DNA of 32,805 bases from a virus (lineage: Duplodnaviria; Caudoviricetes): positions 1 through 32,805 of IMG/VR virus record IMGVR_UViG_3300005077_000068. One strand, given 5' to 3'. Shown in pieces: positions 1,397-32,805 of this stretch (positions within the stretch are counted from its first letter, which is position 1; each line of letters opens with the position of its first letter). The translations under genes and the position numbers were made by a program. The notes below the pieces were generated by a model. That model was given only the letters and a program-made list of their open reading frames with translations, did not search any database and was not told the origin of the DNA.

Positions 1397-2110
1397 ATGA
1401 AGATCAAGCGCGTTCCGATCGACACGCTGAGCTTGGATCCCGCGAACCTGCGCCTGCACGATGAGCGCAACGTCGACGCGGTCAAAGCAAGCCTGCGTCT
1501 CTTCGGTCAACAGAAGCCCATCGTGGTAAGCAAAGCGGGCGTCGTTGTCGCAGGCAACTGCACACTTCAGGCAGCGAAGGCTTTGGGATGGAGCGAGATC
1601 GACACGGTGGAAACCGAGCTCGCCGGGCCGGAAGCCATCGCCTACGCGATCGCGGACAACCGGACAGCAGAGCTCGCCGAGTGGAGCGACAAAGAGCTTC
1701 ACGATCAACTCTCATCGCTTGCGGACTCCGGAGTGTCGATCGAAGACCTCGGCTGGAACGAAAGCGAGTTCGACAGGCTTCAGCGGGAGTTCGACCCAGG
1801 AACGATCGAGGACAAAGGGAACGACGCGCAGAAGATCTCGGACATCGTGGAAGCAACCGCGCCGCTCGAACATGGCGAGGTCTGGAAGCTCGGCACGAGC
1901 AAGCTCGTTGTGTGCAGTCCGGTGAAGGACGTTGCGCTGTGGCGGCCGCTGCTCGACGAAGGCACAGAGGAGTTCGTTCCGTGGTGCGGGTTCCTCGCGC
2001 CGCAAGCCGACAAGTACGCCGGTCGACGCGTCCTCTTCGTGCAGCCAGACCGGACACTAGCTGCGATCGCGGTCGCGCTGTATCCGGGAGCCGAGAGGAT
2101 CAAAGCATGA
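1397..2110 (+). CDS. ParB/Srx-like N-terminal domain protein with a methylase-like C-terminal remnant
   Basis: PANLRLHD...SLRLFGQQKPIVV...VVAGN...IADNR is the typical phage ParB-like domain. GEVWKLGTSKLVVC resembles the GDxWxLGxHRLxCGD linker of ParB-methylase fusions. An alternative GTG start lies at 1361. Confidence 0.8.
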   Translation: MKIKRVPIDTLSLDPANLRLHDERNVDAVKASLRLFGQQKPIVVSKAGVVVAGNCTLQAAKALGWSEIDTVETELAGPEAIAYAIADNRTAELAEWSDKELHDQLSSLADSGVSIEDLGWNESEFDRLQREFDPGTIEDKGNDAQKISDIVEATAPLEHGEVWKLGTSKLVVCSPVKDVALWRPLLDEGTEEFVPWCGFLAPQADKYAGRRVLFVQPDRTLAAIAVALYPGAERIKA

Positions 2111-2940
2111 GCACGAAACAAACTGGCGGCACATGGGACCCGAGCGCGCCGCCGATGTACTTCGTCGCCATGACCACGATGTACGACGACGTTCCTGCGC
2201 TCGTGGAGAACGTGCTTCTTCCTGTGACGAACGCCAAAGCGCCCGACGCTCAGGTGATGTTCAACAGCGGGCGACGCCTCAACATCCTCGTCGACTCTGG
2301 CGTGTTCGAACTGGCCGCAGCTCACGCACGCAAGAACAATCTCACGCACGACGAAGCGCTCAGAGCGCCGATCGACGAGATCGAAGGCGCGCTCAAACTG
2401 CTCGACTCCTACGCGGAGTTCGTCTCGCAGCGTGGCGACGAGCTCTGGGGATACGTGGAGTTCGACATCGGTGGACGCGAGCAGAAGATCAAGACGCGAG
2501 CCAAGCTGGAGTCCGCCGGACTGCGGCCGATCCCTGTGATCCATCCGTTGAACGACGGCTGGTCGTACTTCGACGAGATGGCCGACAAGTACGACCGGCT
2601 CTGCGTGGGCAACCTCGTGGGAGCCAGCGAGTCGGTTCGCCGACGCATCCTGTTCGAAGTGCAGCGCCGCAGGCAAGGCAAGGCGGTGAAGTGGATTCAC
2701 GCGCTCGGCGTTACGCCGTCCTCGCTGTGGATGTCGCTGCCGACGGAGAGCTGCGACTCGTCGTCGTTCGCAAACATGACGCGGTGGGGCGGCGAGGCGC
2801 GCGACTACGCTGCGTTCGCACAAGTGCCAGTCGGGATCAAACAGATAACAACGAAGGGAATGATCATGTATAAGATCGAAGTGGCGATCGGTGGCGCGTT
2901 GGGGAGCGCGACAACCGCCGCGCGGCAGGAGATCGGATGA
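2107..2940 (+). CDS. dpdA: tRNA-guanine transglycosylase-like 7-deazaguanine DNA insertase (DpdA family)
   Basis: TGT-fold motifs LVDSGVF, VEFD, PIPVIH, IHALG and SCDSSS; adjacent to folE/queD/queE. Confidence 0.85.
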   Translation: MSTKQTGGTWDPSAPPMYFVAMTTMYDDVPALVENVLLPVTNAKAPDAQVMFNSGRRLNILVDSGVFELAAAHARKNNLTHDEALRAPIDEIEGALKLLDSYAEFVSQRGDELWGYVEFDIGGREQKIKTRAKLESAGLRPIPVIHPLNDGWSYFDEMADKYDRLCVGNLVGASESVRRRILFEVQRRRQGKAVKWIHALGVTPSSLWMSLPTESCDSSSFANMTRWGGEARDYAAFAQVPVGIKQITTKGMIMYKIEVAIGGALGSATTAARQEIG

Positions 2941-3266
2941 GCCTCAAAGTCTACTGCACGACAGCCTTTCGCGGATTCCACAGGTGGGCCGATGCGCCGA
3001 GCGAGGTAAACTACCTCGCCAGCGTTCATCGGCATACTTTCCATGTGCGCGCCGAGTTCGCTGTGCGGCACGGCGGCAGGCACATCGAGTTCATCACGAA
3101 GCAAGCGGAGATCGACAAGGCGATCGCCAGCTTGCGTGTCGAGCCCGATGTCCTTCTGTGGTCGTGCGAGATGTGGGCGGAAGCCATCGGGATAGCAGTA
3201 GGGGCCGACAGCGTGGAAGTGAGCGAGGACGGCGAGAACGGAGCCGTTTGGACAAAGGAGGAGTGA
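2937..3266 (+). CDS. QueD-like T-fold protein, DpdL-type (candidate CDG decarboxylase)
   Basis: GFHRW...LASVHRHTF (LxxxHRHxF in place of the QueD CxxxHGH), SCE and EDGENGA; second QueD paralog in the cluster. Confidence 0.7.
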   Translation: MSLKVYCTTAFRGFHRWADAPSEVNYLASVHRHTFHVRAEFAVRHGGRHIEFITKQAEIDKAIASLRVEPDVLLWSCEMWAEAIGIAVGADSVEVSEDGENGAVWTKEE

Positions 3267-3634
3267 TGTTCACCATCTCAAAGACGTTCGCATTCTGCGC
3301 GAGCCACCGGCTTGAGGGATTGCCTCCGGGGCATCCGTGCGCGCGGATGCACGGCCACAACTACGTCGTCGAAGTCGCGGTGTCCGCGAACGCGTTGAAC
3401 ACAGTGGGCTTCGTGATCGACTATCGCGATCTCGCGCCGTGCCGCGACTTTATTGACAGCAAGTTGGATCACCGGCACCTGAACGACTGCCTGCCTGAAG
3501 GGGTGAACCCCACAGCGGAGGAGATCGCGCGATGGCTGCACGGCGTGTTCTGTTCTCTGCTACCCGTTCCGCCGGCCAATCTCGCCGTCGCTGTTTGCGA
3601 AACACCGAAGACGCGCGCCGAGTACCGGCCATGA
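3266..3634 (+). CDS. queD: 6-carboxy-5,6,7,8-tetrahydropterin synthase
   Basis: FCASHRL, CARMHGHNY, LDHRHLN, NPTAEEIA, ETPKT. Confidence 0.95.
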   Translation: MFTISKTFAFCASHRLEGLPPGHPCARMHGHNYVVEVAVSANALNTVGFVIDYRDLAPCRDFIDSKLDHRHLNDCLPEGVNPTAEEIARWLHGVFCSLLPVPPANLAVAVCETPKTRAEYRP

Positions 3635-4329
3635 TGATCAGCGAAATCTACGGGCCGGTACCGCAAGGTGAAGGACCGGTCGCCGGGATCTGGTCGATCA
3701 TGCTGCGCACCGGCGGCTGCGACTTCCGCTGCGCGTGGTGCGACACGCCGCACGCCGTTCTTCCGGAGAACAAGGCGAGCTGGCAGGAGATGTCCGCGTC
3801 TGACGTCGCACGCGAAGTCGATGCGATGGATCCCAAGTCGCTTGTGCCGCTCGTTACAATCACCGGCGGAAACCCTGCGCTTTGGGAGATGGATGAAGCG
3901 GTTGAACTCCTGCACGCGCAGGGGAGGCTGGTGGCGGTCGAGACTCAAGGCAGCGTCTGGAAGCCGTGGATCGCCAAGTGCGACTTCATTGTTGTCGCGC
4001 CCAAGCCGCCGTCGTCCGGCCATACCCCTGACGATCATCGCGCGATGCCTCTCTTCTTCGACCAGCGCGCCGATCACGCAAGGCAGACGCACATGAAGCT
4101 CACGATCGACCCGAACAGCGAAGACGATGTGCGGTGGGCGATGGACCTCGCTGATCACGTGTGCAAGGACAAGTTCATCGCGTTCGTGCAGCCGGTAACG
4201 CAAGCCGGAGGCGATCCGGTTGCGGCGCTCAGGGATCTCCACCGCGTCATGGTGGAGCGGTCGTGGTACTCAGCGGTCGTGCTGCCGCAGATCCACGCTG
4301 TCTGTCACGGGAGGAAGCGTGCGACATAA
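3631..4329 (+). CDS. queE: 7-carboxy-7-deazaguanine synthase (radical SAM)
   Basis: QGEG, RTGGCDFRCAWCDT (CxxxCxxC), TGGNP, VETQG, PQIH. Confidence 0.95.
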   Translation: MMISEIYGPVPQGEGPVAGIWSIMLRTGGCDFRCAWCDTPHAVLPENKASWQEMSASDVAREVDAMDPKSLVPLVTITGGNPALWEMDEAVELLHAQGRLVAVETQGSVWKPWIAKCDFIVVAPKPPSSGHTPDDHRAMPLFFDQRADHARQTHMKLTIDPNSEDDVRWAMDLADHVCKDKFIAFVQPVTQAGGDPVAALRDLHRVMVERSWYSAVVLPQIHAVCHGRKRAT

Positions 4330-4885
4330 CATCGACATGAAAGCAATCGAAGCAGCAACCTCGGCGATCTTGATCGCAATCGGAGAGGACCCCAGCCGCG
4401 AAGGACTCCGCGACACTCCTGCGCGTGTCGCGCGGTGGTGGCAAGAGTTCATGCTGCGCGAGCGGGAGTCCTCGTGGACTTCGTTCTCCGCAGAGAAGAC
4501 GGACCAGGTAGTCGTTGTTTCCGGCATCCGCGTCTGGTCGCTGTGCGAGCACCATCTGCTTCCGTTCTCGTGCGACTTGACAGTCGGCTATCTGTGCCGC
4601 AAGAAGGTCATCGGGCTGTCGAAGATCCCGCGCGTCTGCCACCTGTTTGCTAGCCGCCTCCAGTTGCAAGAGAGAATGGTAGAGCAGATCGCGGACGAAG
4701 TTGAGCGCATGACCGAGTCCGAGGACGTTGCGGTGATTGGAAGCGGGCGTCATCTGTGTTGCCTCATCCGAGGCGTGAAGACGGACGCAGTCATGCACAC
4801 GAGCGCCATTCGAGGGAGGTTCCGCGATGCCGTCATCCGGCAGGAGTTCTTCGCGCTCGCGCAAGGCCAGCAAGGCCAAGCCTAA
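4319..4885 (+). CDS. folE: GTP cyclohydrolase I
   Basis: GEDPSREGLRDTPARV, SLCEHHLLPF, GLSK, RLQLQER, HLCCLIRG; start is GTG 4319 or ATG 4337. Confidence 0.95.
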   Translation: MRHNIDMKAIEAATSAILIAIGEDPSREGLRDTPARVARWWQEFMLRERESSWTSFSAEKTDQVVVVSGIRVWSLCEHHLLPFSCDLTVGYLCRKKVIGLSKIPRVCHLFASRLQLQERMVEQIADEVERMTESEDVAVIGSGRHLCCLIRGVKTDAVMHTSAIRGRFRDAVIRQEFFALAQGQQGQA

Positions 4886-23801: not shown

Positions 23802-23830
23802 TTGCGCGTATGTCCCCAAGCCTATATGCT
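23802..23830 (+). promoter_or_regulatory. Putative sigma70-type early promoter
   Basis: TTGCGC (23802)-17 bp-TATGCT (23825), upstream of the first early gene. Confidence 0.6.
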
Positions 23831-23879
23831 TCCCCTGTAGTTGGAGTTCGGTCGGGCGGCGGGAAACAGGAGGCACAAG

Positions 23880-24206
23880 ATGACGAAGCGGACGAAGCGG
23901 ACGAAGCGGACGACGTGCTCGCATTGCGGCACGATCTTGGATAGCGCGCCGGACGCGCGCGGGCGTTGCGACGACTGCGAAGCACTGTTCGCGGCGATCG
24001 ACTTGCTCACGGACAGCTTTGGTCCGGATGCGCGTCGCGCGCGCAAGCTCATGGACAAGATCGGCGCAGCGCTGAGCGCGCTGAAGGGAAGTTACGAGGG
24101 GATTCCGGCGGCGGTCGCGCGCGAGAAGAACGACAAGATGGTCAACACGCTCGTCGATCGCGTGATCGACGCGGTCGAGGCGTACTGCCCAGTCCGGACG
24201 CTTTAG
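23880..24206 (+). CDS. Hypothetical early protein with a CxxC...CxxC zinc finger
   Basis: CSHC...CDDC; RBS AGGAGG; N-terminal 9-bp repeat (TKR x3). Confidence 0.75.
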   Translation: MTKRTKRTKRTTCSHCGTILDSAPDARGRCDDCEALFAAIDLLTDSFGPDARRARKLMDKIGAALSALKGSYEGIPAAVAREKNDKMVNTLVDRVIDAVEAYCPVRTL

Positions 24207-24208
24207 CG

Positions 24209-24267
24209 CGTCCGTCCGCTGCTATGTCGCAGCGCTGATGAGGCGGCAGTCACCGCCGAAACGGACG
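24209..24267 (+). ncRNA. Type III hammerhead ribozyme (HHR1)
   Basis: Stem III CGUCCGU/ACGGACG; GUC cleavage after 24216; stem I CGCUGC/GCAGCG; core CUGAUGA; stem II GGCGG/CCGCC; GAAA. Confidence 0.93.
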
Positions 24268-24287
24268 ACCGAAACAGGAGGCACGCA

Positions 24288-24812
24288 ATGTCCAAGAAGA
24301 GCACGAAGACCAGCAGCACGAAGGCTGATCGCAACGCGAAGAGCGCCGAGTGGCGCAAGGCGCGGGCCGCGCGCATGGCGCACGAGCTCGGCGAAGTGAG
24401 CGACAACTACTCGAGCACGATCGACTTCGTGGCCGCCGAGGTGCAGCGGATCATGGACGCGAACGAGATTCCCGCGCGGCTGCGGCCCGCGTTCATCGGC
24501 GCGGTTCGCCGCGCGCTGAAGGCCAGCAACGGCGGCAGCAAGAAGATCAAGGACGCGAACTTCTGGACGCGCGAAGACGGCAACACGCTCTTCACCGGCA
24601 ACACGGTCGGCGTCGCGGTCCGCGCGAAGGACAAGGTCACCGGCAAGTGGATCGTCACCGAGTGCGACGCGCTGTTCGCCAAGTGGACGAAGAACGGTCG
24701 CGCGGCCAAGGCAATGCTCTCGCAGGCGATCCCCTCCTGCGGCATCGAGGTCGGCGACATGAAGGTCGGCCGCGTCGTCGAGGTCAACGGCGCGCGCAAG
24801 GGCAACGAGTAG
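24288..24812 (+). CDS. Hypothetical basic early protein
   Basis: RBS AGGAGG; strongly biased codon usage. Confidence 0.8.
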   Translation: MSKKSTKTSSTKADRNAKSAEWRKARAARMAHELGEVSDNYSSTIDFVAAEVQRIMDANEIPARLRPAFIGAVRRALKASNGGSKKIKDANFWTREDGNTLFTGNTVGVAVRAKDKVTGKWIVTECDALFAKWTKNGRAAKAMLSQAIPSCGIEVGDMKVGRVVEVNGARKGNE

Positions 24813-24886
24813 CAGCGCACAACGCACAACGAACAACCCGCGACGCCCGGACTCTTCCGGGCGTCGCGTTCGTCAGGAGGCACGAC

Positions 24887-25165
24887 ATGGCGAAGATCAG
24901 CGCGAAGGGATGCCGGAAGGTCGCGGAGGCGCGCCGGTCCGGATCGTTCCAGAATGAGCCGGACGTCACGTTCGAGGATGTGTACGTGCTTCGGAGTGAC
25001 GGCGTCACGTTGCGCCGCACGATCTGGAGGGAGAACGGACGCGCGCGGACGAGCGGATACGTCACGGCGTCGGTGAAGAGGGTGAAGATGGACATGAGCG
25101 GTCTGGAAGAGTGGGAGCGCACGATGGAGGCGCGCGGCTTCGAGATGAGTTCGTTTCCGTACTGA
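24887..25165 (+). CDS. Hypothetical early protein
   Basis: RBS AGGAGG after a hairpin. Confidence 0.75.
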   Translation: MAKISAKGCRKVAEARRSGSFQNEPDVTFEDVYVLRSDGVTLRRTIWRENGRARTSGYVTASVKRVKMDMSGLEEWERTMEARGFEMSSFPY

Positions 25166-25190
25166 TCGACGAACGACAACGGACCGAACC

Positions 25191-25220
25191 GAACCCGCCC
25201 GCGATTGCCGGGCGGGTTTT
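25191..25220 (+). terminator. Terminator-like hairpin
   Basis: AACCCGCCCG/CGGGCGGGTT stem followed by a short T run. Confidence 0.5.
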
Positions 25221-25233
25221 CATTGGAGGAGAG

Positions 25234-25725
25234 ATGAAGAGGTACACGCAGAGTCACGCCGACTTCCGAATGGTCCGCCGCGAAGGCGGCGACTGGGTTC
25301 ACGCGGACGCCGCCTGCTCGCTGATCGAACGCGAGATGAACCGAGTCGGTGACCGGCTGACCGGGTACAGCTTCCCGCTGCGCTACAGGTGCAGCGCGTT
25401 CGACGGACGCGTCTACGCGACGCCCGGTGGCCACTGGTCGAAGTACGCGGAGGTGCTGCAGATCCTCCGCGAGATCGCGGCGCAGCGTCCGCACGCGAAG
25501 GACAGCGACTGCACGGTAGTGGACGGCTGGTGCATCATCTGCGGCGCCGAGCACGGCGAAGGCTGCGAGACGTGCGGCGGGCGCGGGTTCCACTGGCCTG
25601 CGTGTCCCGACGGTCCCGATGTCCGCGACTGGGGTGGTCCCGGTGAGGATGGCGAGCCGACGTCGATCGCCGAGCACGCAGGCTGCGGCTATCCGCGACC
25701 GGACGACTGCGAGGTGACCCGATGA
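25234..25725 (+). CDS. Hypothetical Cys/His-rich early protein
   Basis: RBS GGAGGA; H...DC...CIIC...CETC...H...C. Confidence 0.75.
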   Translation: MKRYTQSHADFRMVRREGGDWVHADAACSLIEREMNRVGDRLTGYSFPLRYRCSAFDGRVYATPGGHWSKYAEVLQILREIAAQRPHAKDSDCTVVDGWCIICGAEHGEGCETCGGRGFHWPACPDGPDVRDWGGPGEDGEPTSIAEHAGCGYPRPDDCEVTR

Positions 25726-25922
25726 TCCGCGTCGGCGACAGGGTTCGCTGGTGCGTGGAGGATCTGGATCGGCTGTCGATCCCGTCGGCCGATCCTATCC
25801 GCGCTCAGCGTGGTCACGTGCGTGAGTTCATCGACCGTGGCCGGATGGCCGTGGTCGTGTGGGAAGGTGGTCGCGAGCAGGTGACCGCCGTCGTGAAGCT
25901 GGAGCGGGCGACGTCGCCATGA
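25722..25922 (+). CDS. Small hypothetical protein (SH3/KOW-like)
   Basis: IRVGDRVRW...G.V...A.V.W pattern; ATGA coupling. Confidence 0.7.
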   Translation: MIRVGDRVRWCVEDLDRLSIPSADPIRAQRGHVREFIDRGRMAVVVWEGGREQVTAVVKLERATSP

Positions 25923-25929
25923 GCGGCGC

Positions 25930-25987
25930 GCCCGTCTGTCGCTTCTTCGCGGCACTGACGACGACGGCAGCAACCGTCGAAACGGGC
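25930..25987 (+). ncRNA. Type III hammerhead ribozyme (HHR2) with an extra C after the core
   Basis: Stem III GCCCGU/ACGGGC; GUC cleavage after 25936; stem I UGUCGC/GCGGCA; CUGACGA plus C; stem II GACGG/CCGUC; GAAA. Confidence 0.88.
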
Positions 25988-26001
25988 AAAGGAGGCACAC
26001 G

Positions 26002-26229
26002 ATGACGAGGAGCGAGTACCACGCGACGCTCGCGGAAGCGATCGCGTGGACATCCGGCGAGGGCCGGACCGCAATGCTCATGCGTGCCGGGTCGCACGGG
26101 TTCGCCGTGACGATCACGGCGCTCGCGTTCCACGGGCCGAACTGGCGCATGGTGAGAGTCACCCTGCGCGACGAGCAGACGAACGCCGAGGTCACGACCT
26201 ACGGCGTCGAGCAGGAGGTGGTGGGATGA
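26002..26229 (+). CDS. Hypothetical early protein
   Basis: RBS AAGGAGG directly after HHR2. Confidence 0.75.
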   Translation: MTRSEYHATLAEAIAWTSGEGRTAMLMRAGSHGFAVTITALAFHGPNWRMVRVTLRDEQTNAEVTTYGVEQEVVG

Positions 26230-26922: not shown

Positions 26923-26972
26923 CAATCGAACCGCCGGGGCGTCGGGAACGGCGTCCCGGCAAGGAGGCACAG

Positions 26973-30470: not shown

Positions 30471-30825
30471 TCCGCGCCCGCGGTTCGCTGGCCGCAAGCC
30501 GAAGGCGAAGGGACGCGTCTACGAACGCGAGTTTCGCAAGCGCACCGGAGCGAAGCGTGTGATCGCCTCCGGTGCCTACGGACATCTCGTGGACAACGAC
30601 GACCTGAGCGCCGACGCCGTGCTGGATTCCAACGAGGCGCACCGCAAGCTGCGCGTCGAAGTGAAGTATCGCGCGCGCGGCGTGGCGTTCGGGCAGTTCC
30701 TGAAGCCGCCCGTCGATCTGGTCGCTGTGCGCACGGCAGGGAAGCAGTGGTATGTCGTCTTGACGCTCGACCGTTTCATGGAGGTATACGATGGCTCAGG
30801 GCTGGTACCGTCGACTGCACACTAA
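30454..30825 (+). CDS. Hjc-like Holliday junction resolvase (PD-(D/E)xK)
   Basis: KGRVYERE, SGA, AD and VEVK motifs. Confidence 0.8.
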   Translation: MTGNGDPRPRFAGRKPKAKGRVYEREFRKRTGAKRVIASGAYGHLVDNDDLSADAVLDSNEAHRKLRVEVKYRARGVAFGQFLKPPVDLVAVRTAGKQWYVVLTLDRFMEVYDGSGLVPSTAH

Positions 30826-31969
30826 GGTGTGGGACGATGAGAGGTTCCTTGCGCTGAGCCGAGTCGCGCCGTCCGGGCAGTCGTTGTGGCTGTGGCTCCT
30901 CTTGGGGCCGCACACGACGCCGCTGCCCGGACTTTGGCGTCTCAGCCGTGCGCAAGCGATCGAGGATCTAGAGTGGCCGGCGGATCGGTTCGACGAGTGC
31001 TGGCACGAGATCGAACGCAGCGGGATGGCGCAAGCTGACTGGCGGCGCAAGCTGGTCTGGATCCCGAAGGCGATCGAGTACGCGCTGCCGACGTCGCCAC
31101 GGAACGTCACCGGATGGGCGAGTCACTTCGTCACGCTTCCGGATTGCGATCTGTGGCGCGAAGCGGGCGCGTGCATCCGTTCCGCGTTGACCGACGAGGG
31201 ACGCGCAGCATGGGATCGCGCGACTGCACGGGCAGTCGGCTCTCCCCAAGGAGAACCGGTCTCAACGCCTAAGACACGATCGAAGCCCGGCCCGTGTCAA
31301 CCCCCCAACCCGGAGCCGATCGTTCGCCCTGACCCCCACTTCCAGGGGTCCCGGGCGGCTGTCCGCGACCCGAGCGAGCGGCAGAAGGAGCCGGAAACCG
31401 CCCGGAACGGCTGGCTGACTCCGGAGAACGGCGACCGGATCGCCGATCACATCGCCGATACGATCACCGATCCGATCACCGATACGATCGGTGACCCGAT
31501 CCAGAAGAGAAGAGAAGAGAAGAGAAAAGAAGAGCATAGGCGGCCGGACTCGGCAGCGTGTGCTTCGCACGACGACAAACCTGCAGAGGATCCCGAAGAA
31601 CAGACACGCCTCCGCAGCTTGCTCGCGCGGTTCGGGCGGCGCTATCCAGGTGAGCTTGAGCGTGTCGGTCGAGTGATCGCGATCTCGCGGAGATCAGGGG
31701 AACCCTTAGGTCCGCTGTGTCAAGCTCTCGCTGGAGTCGTCGCGGCAGCGGACAAAGGAACGCCGGTGAAGTACCCGGCGTCTTACATCGCCAAGGTGCT
31801 GCGCGTCGAGGTGCCGAACGAGTACGAGCGGCGCGCGGTCGCCAGGGCGAGCGGCATGAAGCAACTGACCGAAGGGCTGTCGCTGTCGTCGCTGGTCGAA
31901 GCGGCACGCAAGGCAGCGGGCAACGAAGGAGGCACGGACGATGAGCGGTTGCATCGGCAGGAGAAGTGA
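30791..31969 (+). CDS. Replication initiator protein (lambda O-like organisation)
   Basis: YR.L...VWDDERFLALS...LWLWLL N-terminus; low-complexity linker with DNA repeats; PASYIAKVL C-terminus. Confidence 0.75.
   Translation: MAQGWYRRLHTKVWDDERFLALSRVAPSGQSLWLWLLLGPHTTPLPGLWRLSRAQAIEDLEWPADRFDECWHEIERSGMAQADWRRKLVWIPKAIEYALPTSPRNVTGWASHFVTLPDCDLWREAGACIRSALTDEGRAAWDRATARAVGSPQGEPVSTPKTRSKPGPCQPPNPEPIVRPDPHFQGSRAAVRDPSERQKEPETARNGWLTPENGDRIADHIADTITDPITDTIGDPIQKRREEKRKEEHRRPDSAACASHDDKPAEDPEEQTRLRSLLARFGRRYPGELERVGRVIAISRRSGEPLGPLCQALAGVVAAADKGTPVKYPASYIAKVLRVEVPNEYERRAVARASGMKQLTEGLSLSSLVEAARKAAGNEGGTDDERLHRQEK
31438..31534. repeat. Iteron-like 12-bp repeats plus purine tract (candidate origin)
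   Basis: GATCGCCGATCA, CATCGCCGATAC, GATCACCGATCC, GATCACCGATAC, GATCGGTGACCC, then (AGAAG)n. Confidence 0.7.
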
Positions 31970-32726: not shown

Positions 32727-32805
32727 ATGAGCGAGCAAACAAGCGCAGCGCTGGACAGGTTGAGCGTGCTGTTGACTGGCAAGCCACTGACGGCAGGAGA
32801 TGGCC
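32727..32805 (+). CDS. 5' part of the hypothetical protein continuing to position 193
   Basis: GGAGGT RBS; the frame stays open across the terminal repeat. Confidence 0.7.
   Translation, partial: MSEQTSAALDRLSVLLTGKPLTAGDG

Follow-up and report, generated by a model that had tools for sequence, protein, structure and literature searches.

Two type III hammerhead motifs around a four-gene phage block suggest linear segmentation of a likely early transcript with self-capped ends

Hammerhead ribozymes in prophages were described in 2011 by Perreault et al., who reported that several of them flank single genes or short blocks of variable genes, proposed that they process transcripts to operon- or gene-sized mRNAs, and raised the idea of circles while detecting none (PMC3088659). 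In that report, tandem phage hammerheads cleaved ~2-kb polycistronic RNAs in vitro, and one set was active in E. coli as well (PMC3088659). According to a 2019 review, hammerheads have a largely elusive role in bacteria and phages, and the function of self-cleaving ribozymes in phages is an open question (PMC6765202); PMC13725137 is a further literature source drawn on here. The locus analyzed below has the layout described in 2011, with two intergenic motifs on the same strand round a short phage gene block. The layout is thus not new, and a circular product is unlikely. What the locus and its comparison set add is that type III hammerheads carry a hairpin before the cut whereas type I hammerheads do not, and that a minority of these hairpins cover the stop codon of the upstream gene and bury an arm of the ribozyme.

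The window, by which we mean the whole stretch of DNA analyzed, is an entire virus record of 32,805 bases with direct terminal repeats of 68 nt (1-68 and 32738-32805); CheckV estimates its completeness at 38%, so the record may be incomplete. Matches among the 48 ORFs scanned include terminase, portal, capsid, tape measure and endolysin. Further matches are queuine tRNA-ribosyltransferase-like, QueE-like and GTP cyclohydrolase genes, which lie together directly before the terminase (1588-4885) in what we take to be a likeness of a 7-deazaguanine DNA-modification cluster. The hammerheads sit among small orphan ORFs, with lysis genes on one side and recombination genes on the other; downstream of the region are a DUF932-like protein, a YqaJ/RecE exonuclease, and RusA-like and DnaD-like proteins. 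It is from this position between lysis and recombination genes that the operon is likely to be early, and a promoter scan of the region called no promoter. The terminase and DUF932-like proteins share just 26-39% identity with listed phage records, no close relatives were found for a synteny comparison, and none of four loci with a DUF932-like relative has a hammerhead. Two repeats were also seen: short units at 31425-31497 within the DnaD-like ORF 30791-31969, possibly replication-origin iterons, and a 9-nt unit in about three copies at 23883-23912, where the first early ORF begins (TKR-TKR-TKR).

Both motifs place the core elements CUGANGA, GAAA and NUH round a three-way junction with stems I and II capped and stem III open, and pairing is kept in the stems despite sequence change. 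HHR1 has a 7-bp stem III, GUC at the cut, a 6-bp stem I with loop UAUGUC, the core CUGAUGA, a 5-bp stem II with loop CAGUCA, and GAAA; HHR2 has a 6-bp stem III, a 6-bp stem I with loop UUCUUC, the core CUGACGA, a 5-bp stem II with loop CAGCAA, and GAAA. The contact between loops I and II is described as a pyrimidine at the 5′ end of loop I and a purine at the 3′ end of loop II (PMC3376415), and, judged by their letters, both motifs carry this signature as a U that starts loop I and an A that ends loop II. They are the sole structural matches in the window with both strands searched, 300 order-2 Markov imitations of the window gave no hammerhead match, and the isolated motifs adopt the hammerhead shape in predicted folds (z -3.2 for HHR1 and -2.6 for HHR2). 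The anatomy given by the first-pass annotation therefore stands: two complete sense-strand type III hammerheads, with stems that differ yet stay paired and 6-nt loops as listed, each starting within 8 nt of an upstream stop (which ends 2 nt before HHR1 and 7 nt before HHR2) and each ending just before a ribosome-binding motif. The latter, AGGAGGCAC, begins 8 nt after HHR1 and 2 nt after HHR2 and occurs 7 times in the window against 0.38 expected. The length of 1,720 nt and the four orphan ORFs that it assigned to the interval between the two cuts, 24217-25936, were likewise right (Table 1). The analysis confirms both as real type III hammerhead motifs and, by their sequence, as predicted ribozymes.

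Table 1. Features of the hammerhead region, window positions 23802-25998
Feature	Position	Strand	Remarks
Possible early promoter, TTGCGC-17 nt-TATGCT	23802..23830	+	Suggested by eye, below scan threshold; ~50 nt before first early gene
Upstream ORF, 108 aa, two CxxC pairs	23880..24206	+	Decoy 1 in last codons, stop in decoy loop; no PHROG or Pfam family
Decoy hairpin 1	24195..24214	+	24195-24201 pairs with 24208-24214 (6/7 HHR1 arm bases); UAG in loop; predicted fold -13.1 kcal/mol, z -2.2, 6/200 shuffles as good
HHR1, type III hammerhead, consensus core	24209..24267	+	Predicted cut after 24216
Ribosome-binding motif AGGAGGCAC	24276..24284	+	Cut message would carry 71-nt leader
ORF, 174 aa	24288..24812	+	Search for relatives retrieved only itself; no usable Atlas match
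Intergenic hairpin, 12-13 bp	24839..24868	+	z -3.5; after A/C-rich stretch, just before ribosome-binding site at 24875
ORF, 92 aa	24887..25165	+	One weak unnamed relative, 44% identity, E 3e-4
Intergenic hairpin within block	25191..25224	+	z -2.7; U-rich run follows; terminator-like by eye, uncalled by scan
ORF, 163 aa	25234..25725	+	C-terminal half Cys/His-rich; weak zinc-ribbon-like leads only (score 0.83)
ORF, 66 aa	25722..25922	+	Decoy 2 within last codons
Decoy hairpin 2, 13 bp	25904..25935	+	25904-25910 pairs with HHR2 arm 25929-25935; inner helix, UGA in loop; predicted fold -24.6 kcal/mol, z -3.1, 0/200 shuffles as good
HHR2, type III hammerhead, extra C at 25962 after A9	25930..25987	+	Predicted cut after 25936
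Ribosome-binding motif AGGAGGCAC of ORF at 26002	25990..25998	+	Cut message would carry 65-nt leader

Comparison motifs were collected by pattern scans of viral contigs, genomes and metagenomes followed by a custom structure-script filter, which gave at least 231 distinct type III motifs, or 141 at 80% likeness, with 123 coming from scans without decoy enrichment; kinship below 80% likeness stays in the set, so the p-values given below are optimistic. Overlapping calls at L217 (type I) and L155 (type II) were excluded before counting, and the genome-collection scan contributed 3 type III calls from 120 loci among the matches listed. The set also holds clusters of three or four hammerheads (L036:2697-4304, reverse strand in oriented coordinates; L147; L170), and the cluster in L147 mixes type III with type I. 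Searches from the window itself returned little: a scan with the exact loop-I pattern found no viral contigs, and a blastn search of cultured phages with HHR1 yielded nothing beyond short matches. The stems of 17 related motifs show 92 cells changed on both sides, a value reached in none of 500 shuffles, and their covariation exceeds both shuffled and slid controls; these 17 were chosen by the structure filter, which favors pairing, so that the covariation is a matter of consistency rather than proof.

The Rfam check proposed by the first-pass annotation came out in part. A search of the whole window reported no hammerhead, while in a 121-base piece Hammerhead_3 matched HHR1 along its full model length at 39.6 bits (E 8e-8), below the cut-off of 48.5 bits, and HHR2 was absent from the matches; a sub-threshold RF00008 score is a matter for the Rfam entry and leaves membership of the ribozyme class untouched. 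The first-pass annotation had overlooked that HHR2 carries an extra C between A9 and G10.1, which the predicted fold pairs with G12, a pairing that would count against cleavage there. This base, together with the missing Rfam match, is one ground for regarding one or both motifs as inactive passengers of a mobile intergenic cassette. The other is a near-identical copy of HHR1, with the same loops and stem II, at 71-130 of the metagenome contig L625; it precedes an unrelated gene there, which suggests that an HHR1-like unit moves. We consider inactivity very improbable, given cores that are otherwise intact and stems that have diverged yet remain paired. Among the matches listed, moreover, a core insertion at the site of the extra C occurs in 23 of 82 type III motifs with a pattern-free stem III (21 U and 2 A), with a C in L089, and the loop signature is that of most relatives, with loop I starting with U in 91 of 105 motifs and loop II ending with A in 119 of 141. 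The inserted C occupies what we take to be the position of the extra core base of a viroid hammerhead. Such a viroid motif, with one extra base in its core, is known (PMC3376415).

The headline of the first-pass annotation was that the 1,720-nt piece could be closed into a circle, whether through a rebuilt junction hammerhead or through host RtcB, and serve as a circular mRNA. The chemistry would allow it, as the predicted ends are a 5′-OH and a 2′,3′-cyclic phosphate (PMC6765202) and full-length hammerheads are far better ligases than minimal versions (PMC6155905). The count of 6 of 7 possible pairs between the HHR2 and HHR1 arms is also right, but such a match is ordinary, since among the matches listed 28 of 82 unrelated arms reach at least 6/7 with the HHR1 3′ arm and 62 of 82 reach 4 contiguous pairs. 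Across 40 neighboring type III pairs among the matches listed, arms do cross-pair above shuffled ones (p 0.0012; p 0.11 for the first 22); the junction that would not close a circle, however, shows the same excess (4.33 vs 4.35, among the matches listed), so that shared descent explains it. In the window, 6 contiguous pairs are possible at this wrong-way junction as against 4 at the circle junction, and the tandem repeated ends that rebuild a hammerhead in retrozymes are not found, the contiguous cross stem being 4 bp. When the two ends are joined in a folding model, the cross stem is given P 0.0 and comes out 6.3 kcal/mol less stable than a 13-bp self-hairpin of the HHR2 arm, which speaks against the rebuilt hammerhead. 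Many motifs have a neighbor of another type (35 of 84 pairs) or stand alone in their 8-kb locus (32 of 57), both counts among the matches listed. This record has no RtcB match, a limited point because the host may supply one, and Perreault et al. sought circular and spliced products and found none, as data not shown (PMC3088659). A circular mRNA is accordingly a very unlikely outcome.

A different regularity emerges when the sequence before each motif is folded. With the rule set at a hairpin of -6 kcal/mol or better that ends within 6 nt before the motif, such a hairpin is found at 80 of 123 type III motifs, compared with 3 of 35 for type I and none of 6 for type II, among the matches listed; in loci that hold both types the figures are 19 of 24 vs 1 of 36 (also among the matches listed), and the least pattern-biased scan has it before 26 of 50 type III motifs among those listed. 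Both upstream products in the window are predicted to end in hairpins. The rule, like the motifs and their positions, is an observation, made in other phage contigs. Its type specificity follows the topology of the cut, in that a type III cut would leave a bare arm on the upstream piece and a type I cut a stem III hairpin (as in 35 of 35 type I upstream products among the matches listed), so that the upstream piece would be capped either way. The simplest reading, which these counts suggest, is that selection supplies an upstream product with a 3′ hairpin in either type. If the hairpins served folding insulation alone, they would be expected before type I motifs too, and a type-specific rule argues for linear products. 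Start codons lie within 40 nt downstream of most motifs, both type III (45 of 54) and type I (14 of 16), compared with 5 of 54 for type III in the opposite-strand control, all among the matches listed.

We therefore favor, at somewhat better than even confidence, linear segmentation with self-capped ends. The likely early transcript would be cut after 24216 and 25936 into three linear messages: an upstream part, the 1,720-nt four-gene part, and a downstream part. By the folds predicted for precursors and products, the leftover stem III arm of the upstream piece would refold into a terminal hairpin with 1-2 bases unpaired, which would free the product, make re-ligation unfavorable and withstand 3′ nucleases. 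The 5′-OH at the start of the downstream piece would be paired in stem I, 65-71 nt ahead of the start codon, as in a natural counterpart of the RiboJ insulator. The likely gain would be that each gene block has its stability and translation set independently, with no need for a processing nuclease of the host. From this arrangement we infer transcription, cellular cleavage and stabilization, and host-independent segmentation or stabilization, the second option of the first-pass annotation, is supported by anatomy and comparison rather than by experiment. Protection of the 5′ end is not the general purpose of such cuts, because the downstream product of a type I motif keeps no ribozyme hairpin at its 5′ end. 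Two further hairpins within the block, one of them terminator-like, may shorten the 1,720-nt piece. These two and a third at 26933-26960 (z -3.6) are strong hairpins that stand just 5′ of the ribosome-binding site at early-region junctions without a hammerhead, and are possibly nuclease sites or 5′ stabilizers with the same job as the hammerheads.

Cleavage could have the opposite effect and destabilize or silence the downstream pieces, turning early genes off or setting a gradient along the operon, as when glmS cleavage is followed by decay (PMC6765202). The best predicted fold of the HHR2 product is compatible with this, since it hides its own ribosome-binding site by pairing it with loop I (mean unpaired 0.06; more stable than stem I by 3.9 kcal/mol); such pairing would oppose translation and argues against a purely protective role, and the terminator-like hairpin within the block points the same way. 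The pairing involves the HHR2 5′ end and loop I UUCUUC (25937-26002), a loop that L189 shares. Silencing is nonetheless improbable, if less so than a circle: the new 5′ ends would be paired from the first base and most type III cuts are preceded by a hairpin, both of which suggest protection, and an engineered hammerhead at the same position, RiboJ, boosts expression, giving about twice the mRNA and two to ten times the protein (PMC6206723).

The hairpins that would cap the upstream pieces have a second property, also overlooked by the first-pass annotation. Each stem III 5′ arm in the window has a rival partner among the final codons of the preceding gene, and the cap hairpin consists of these codons and the ribozyme's own arm, with a 7-bp decoy in coding sequence at both motifs. 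In unconstrained folds of both precursors P of stem III is near 0 (ddG 3.5 for HHR1 and 10.3 for HHR2), and because stem III fails to form, constitutive cutting is not assured; unconstrained folding is harsh on junctions, as 60 of 72 other motifs among the matches listed also have P <0.5. When stems I and II are kept fixed, the ribozyme fold equals or beats the decoy before tertiary contacts are considered (ddG -2.2 for HHR1 and 0.0 for HHR2); at the L189 4005 motif, by contrast, the decoy is the better fold by 6.3 kcal/mol, which makes it the sharpest case for comparison. Burying the arm gains -9.2 kcal/mol for HHR1 and -9.8 kcal/mol for HHR2. For HHR1, 46 of 1000 dinucleotide shuffles and 174 of 1000 synonymous recodings reach such a gain; for HHR2 the counts are 40 and 49. 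The unconstrained ddG separates the two motifs, being matched for HHR1 in 149 of 1000 shuffles and 229 of 1000 recodings and for HHR2 in 9 and 6 of 1000. Decoy length alone is matched by 92-133 of 1000 for both, and covariation between the two decoys and their arms is only half supported, the arm swap being one-sided (4 and 7 bp).

Stop-adjacent decoys recur in other phage and metagenome contigs. An arm burial of at least 8 kcal/mol is found in 10 of 123 motifs vs 1.8% of shuffles, and 18 of 143 representatives bury the inner arm and make up a decoy class, HHR2 inside it and HHR1 outside, from a pool that takes in two decoy-enriched scans (both counts among the matches listed). In this class the stop is no more than 23 nt from the cut for 12 of 17 motifs, vs 15 of 97 others among the matches listed; in the unenriched set, taken at ddG of at least 4, the link is borderline (3 of 16 vs 3 of 80, p 0.056, among the matches listed). 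The GA of the stop pairs with the UC of the cleavage triplet in 7 of 17 decoy-class motifs among the matches listed, and L406 retains this pairing with an altered stem; L189 and L557 share a stretch, so at most six of the cases are independent. A mask the size of a ribosome footprint was also laid over the precursors. It raises P of stem III from 0.00 to 0.93-0.99 in HHR1 with the A site 2-6 codons before the stop, and from 0.00 to 0.40-0.92 in HHR2 with the A site 1-8 codons before it. For 15 hand-picked cases (13 of the decoy class and both window motifs, HHR2 counted once), P is at most 0.02 in 13 of 15 unmasked and at least 0.78 in 14 of 15 with a mask at the stop or up to 2 codons away. 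The result is partly true by construction, because masking the decoy frees the arm.

A ribosome gate would account for these features as follows: the decoy forms first during transcription, a ribosome at the last codons melts it, stem III forms and the RNA is cut. The linear pieces would be identical, and cutting would report translation. We regard this as possible though doubtful. The shared 7-bp coding-sequence decoys and the rarity of the HHR2 ddG favor it, as do the excess of buried arms, the nearness of decoy-class stops to the cut, the stop-triplet pairings and the rise of predicted P under the mask. Against this, the HHR1 decoy is not rare and HHR1 stands outside the class, no thermodynamic block is seen in the window once stems I and II are held, a ribosome on the HHR1 stop itself would cover the arm (P 0.000), and the supporting pool is enriched, with the weak unenriched link, the built-in effect of the mask and the one-sided arm swap already noted. 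Moreover, the short gap between gene and ribozyme pushes any cap hairpin onto the stop codon, so the position is explained without a switch. Upstream structures have been studied for their effect on ribozyme assembly, reportedly with hairpin ribozymes and in yeast. That work states that they are able to block assembly in cells, which would favor a gate, and that adjacent helices swap quickly in cells, which would not (PMC2817708). The decoy facts fit a compact cap and product-release ratchet, as part of linear segmentation, and also a ribosome gate.

The broader form of the gate, a phage type III subclass of translation sensors in which a stop-codon decoy, sometimes with the stop pairing directly to the cleavage triplet, blocks the ribozyme until a ribosome ends the gene, with both window motifs as members, is similarly speculative and carries the same tentative weight. 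If true, gating would provide a natural translation-switched ribozyme and a compact part that couples mRNA processing to translation, and a phage message would be cut only where and when it is translated. Within the literature found, in which subscription papers are thinly covered, there is neither a description of a hairpin before phage hammerheads nor of ribosome control of a natural hammerhead. The main text of the 2011 report showed no mention of decoys or of a hairpin ahead of the ribozyme, nor of stop codons or ribosomes, and its supplementary figures may show such hairpins. The type-specific upstream hairpin and the stop-codon decoy are thus apparently new, with Figures S1-S3 of that report possibly bearing on the novelty of the hairpin.

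Among known systems, the RNase III sites of phage T7 are cut between genes of the early transcript and give hairpin-ended messages; unlike hammerhead cleavage, cutting there depends on a host enzyme and yields a 5′ phosphate. The Rfam family RF00008 shares topology, core and loop signature with the window motifs, and differs in that HHR1 falls below its cut-off and HHR2 has an extra core base. VIPR ribozyme-vrRNA arrays consist of GGY/NN repeats between hammerheads (bioRxiv 10.64898/2026.04.26.720920); the window has only five three-unit runs of such repeats, none of them sense-strand-adjacent to a motif, and this assignment was rejected. Retrozymes and viroid-like circles likewise have two type III hammerheads in tandem on one strand, but theirs are tandem copies that yield abundant circles, whereas the window motifs have diverged, bracket four ORFs and leave a 3′ end predicted to fold on itself (PMC7761336). 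The RiboJ insulator is also a hammerhead before a ribosome-binding site that fixes a hairpin-led 5′ end; it is synthetic, with its added hairpin downstream, while the window motifs are natural, lie within an operon and have the hairpin on the upstream product (PMC6206723). Finally, glmS is likewise a self-cleaving RNA before a gene and the one well-understood regulated case in bacteria; it is gated by a metabolite, with decay following, whereas the gate in the window would be the ribosome (PMC6765202).
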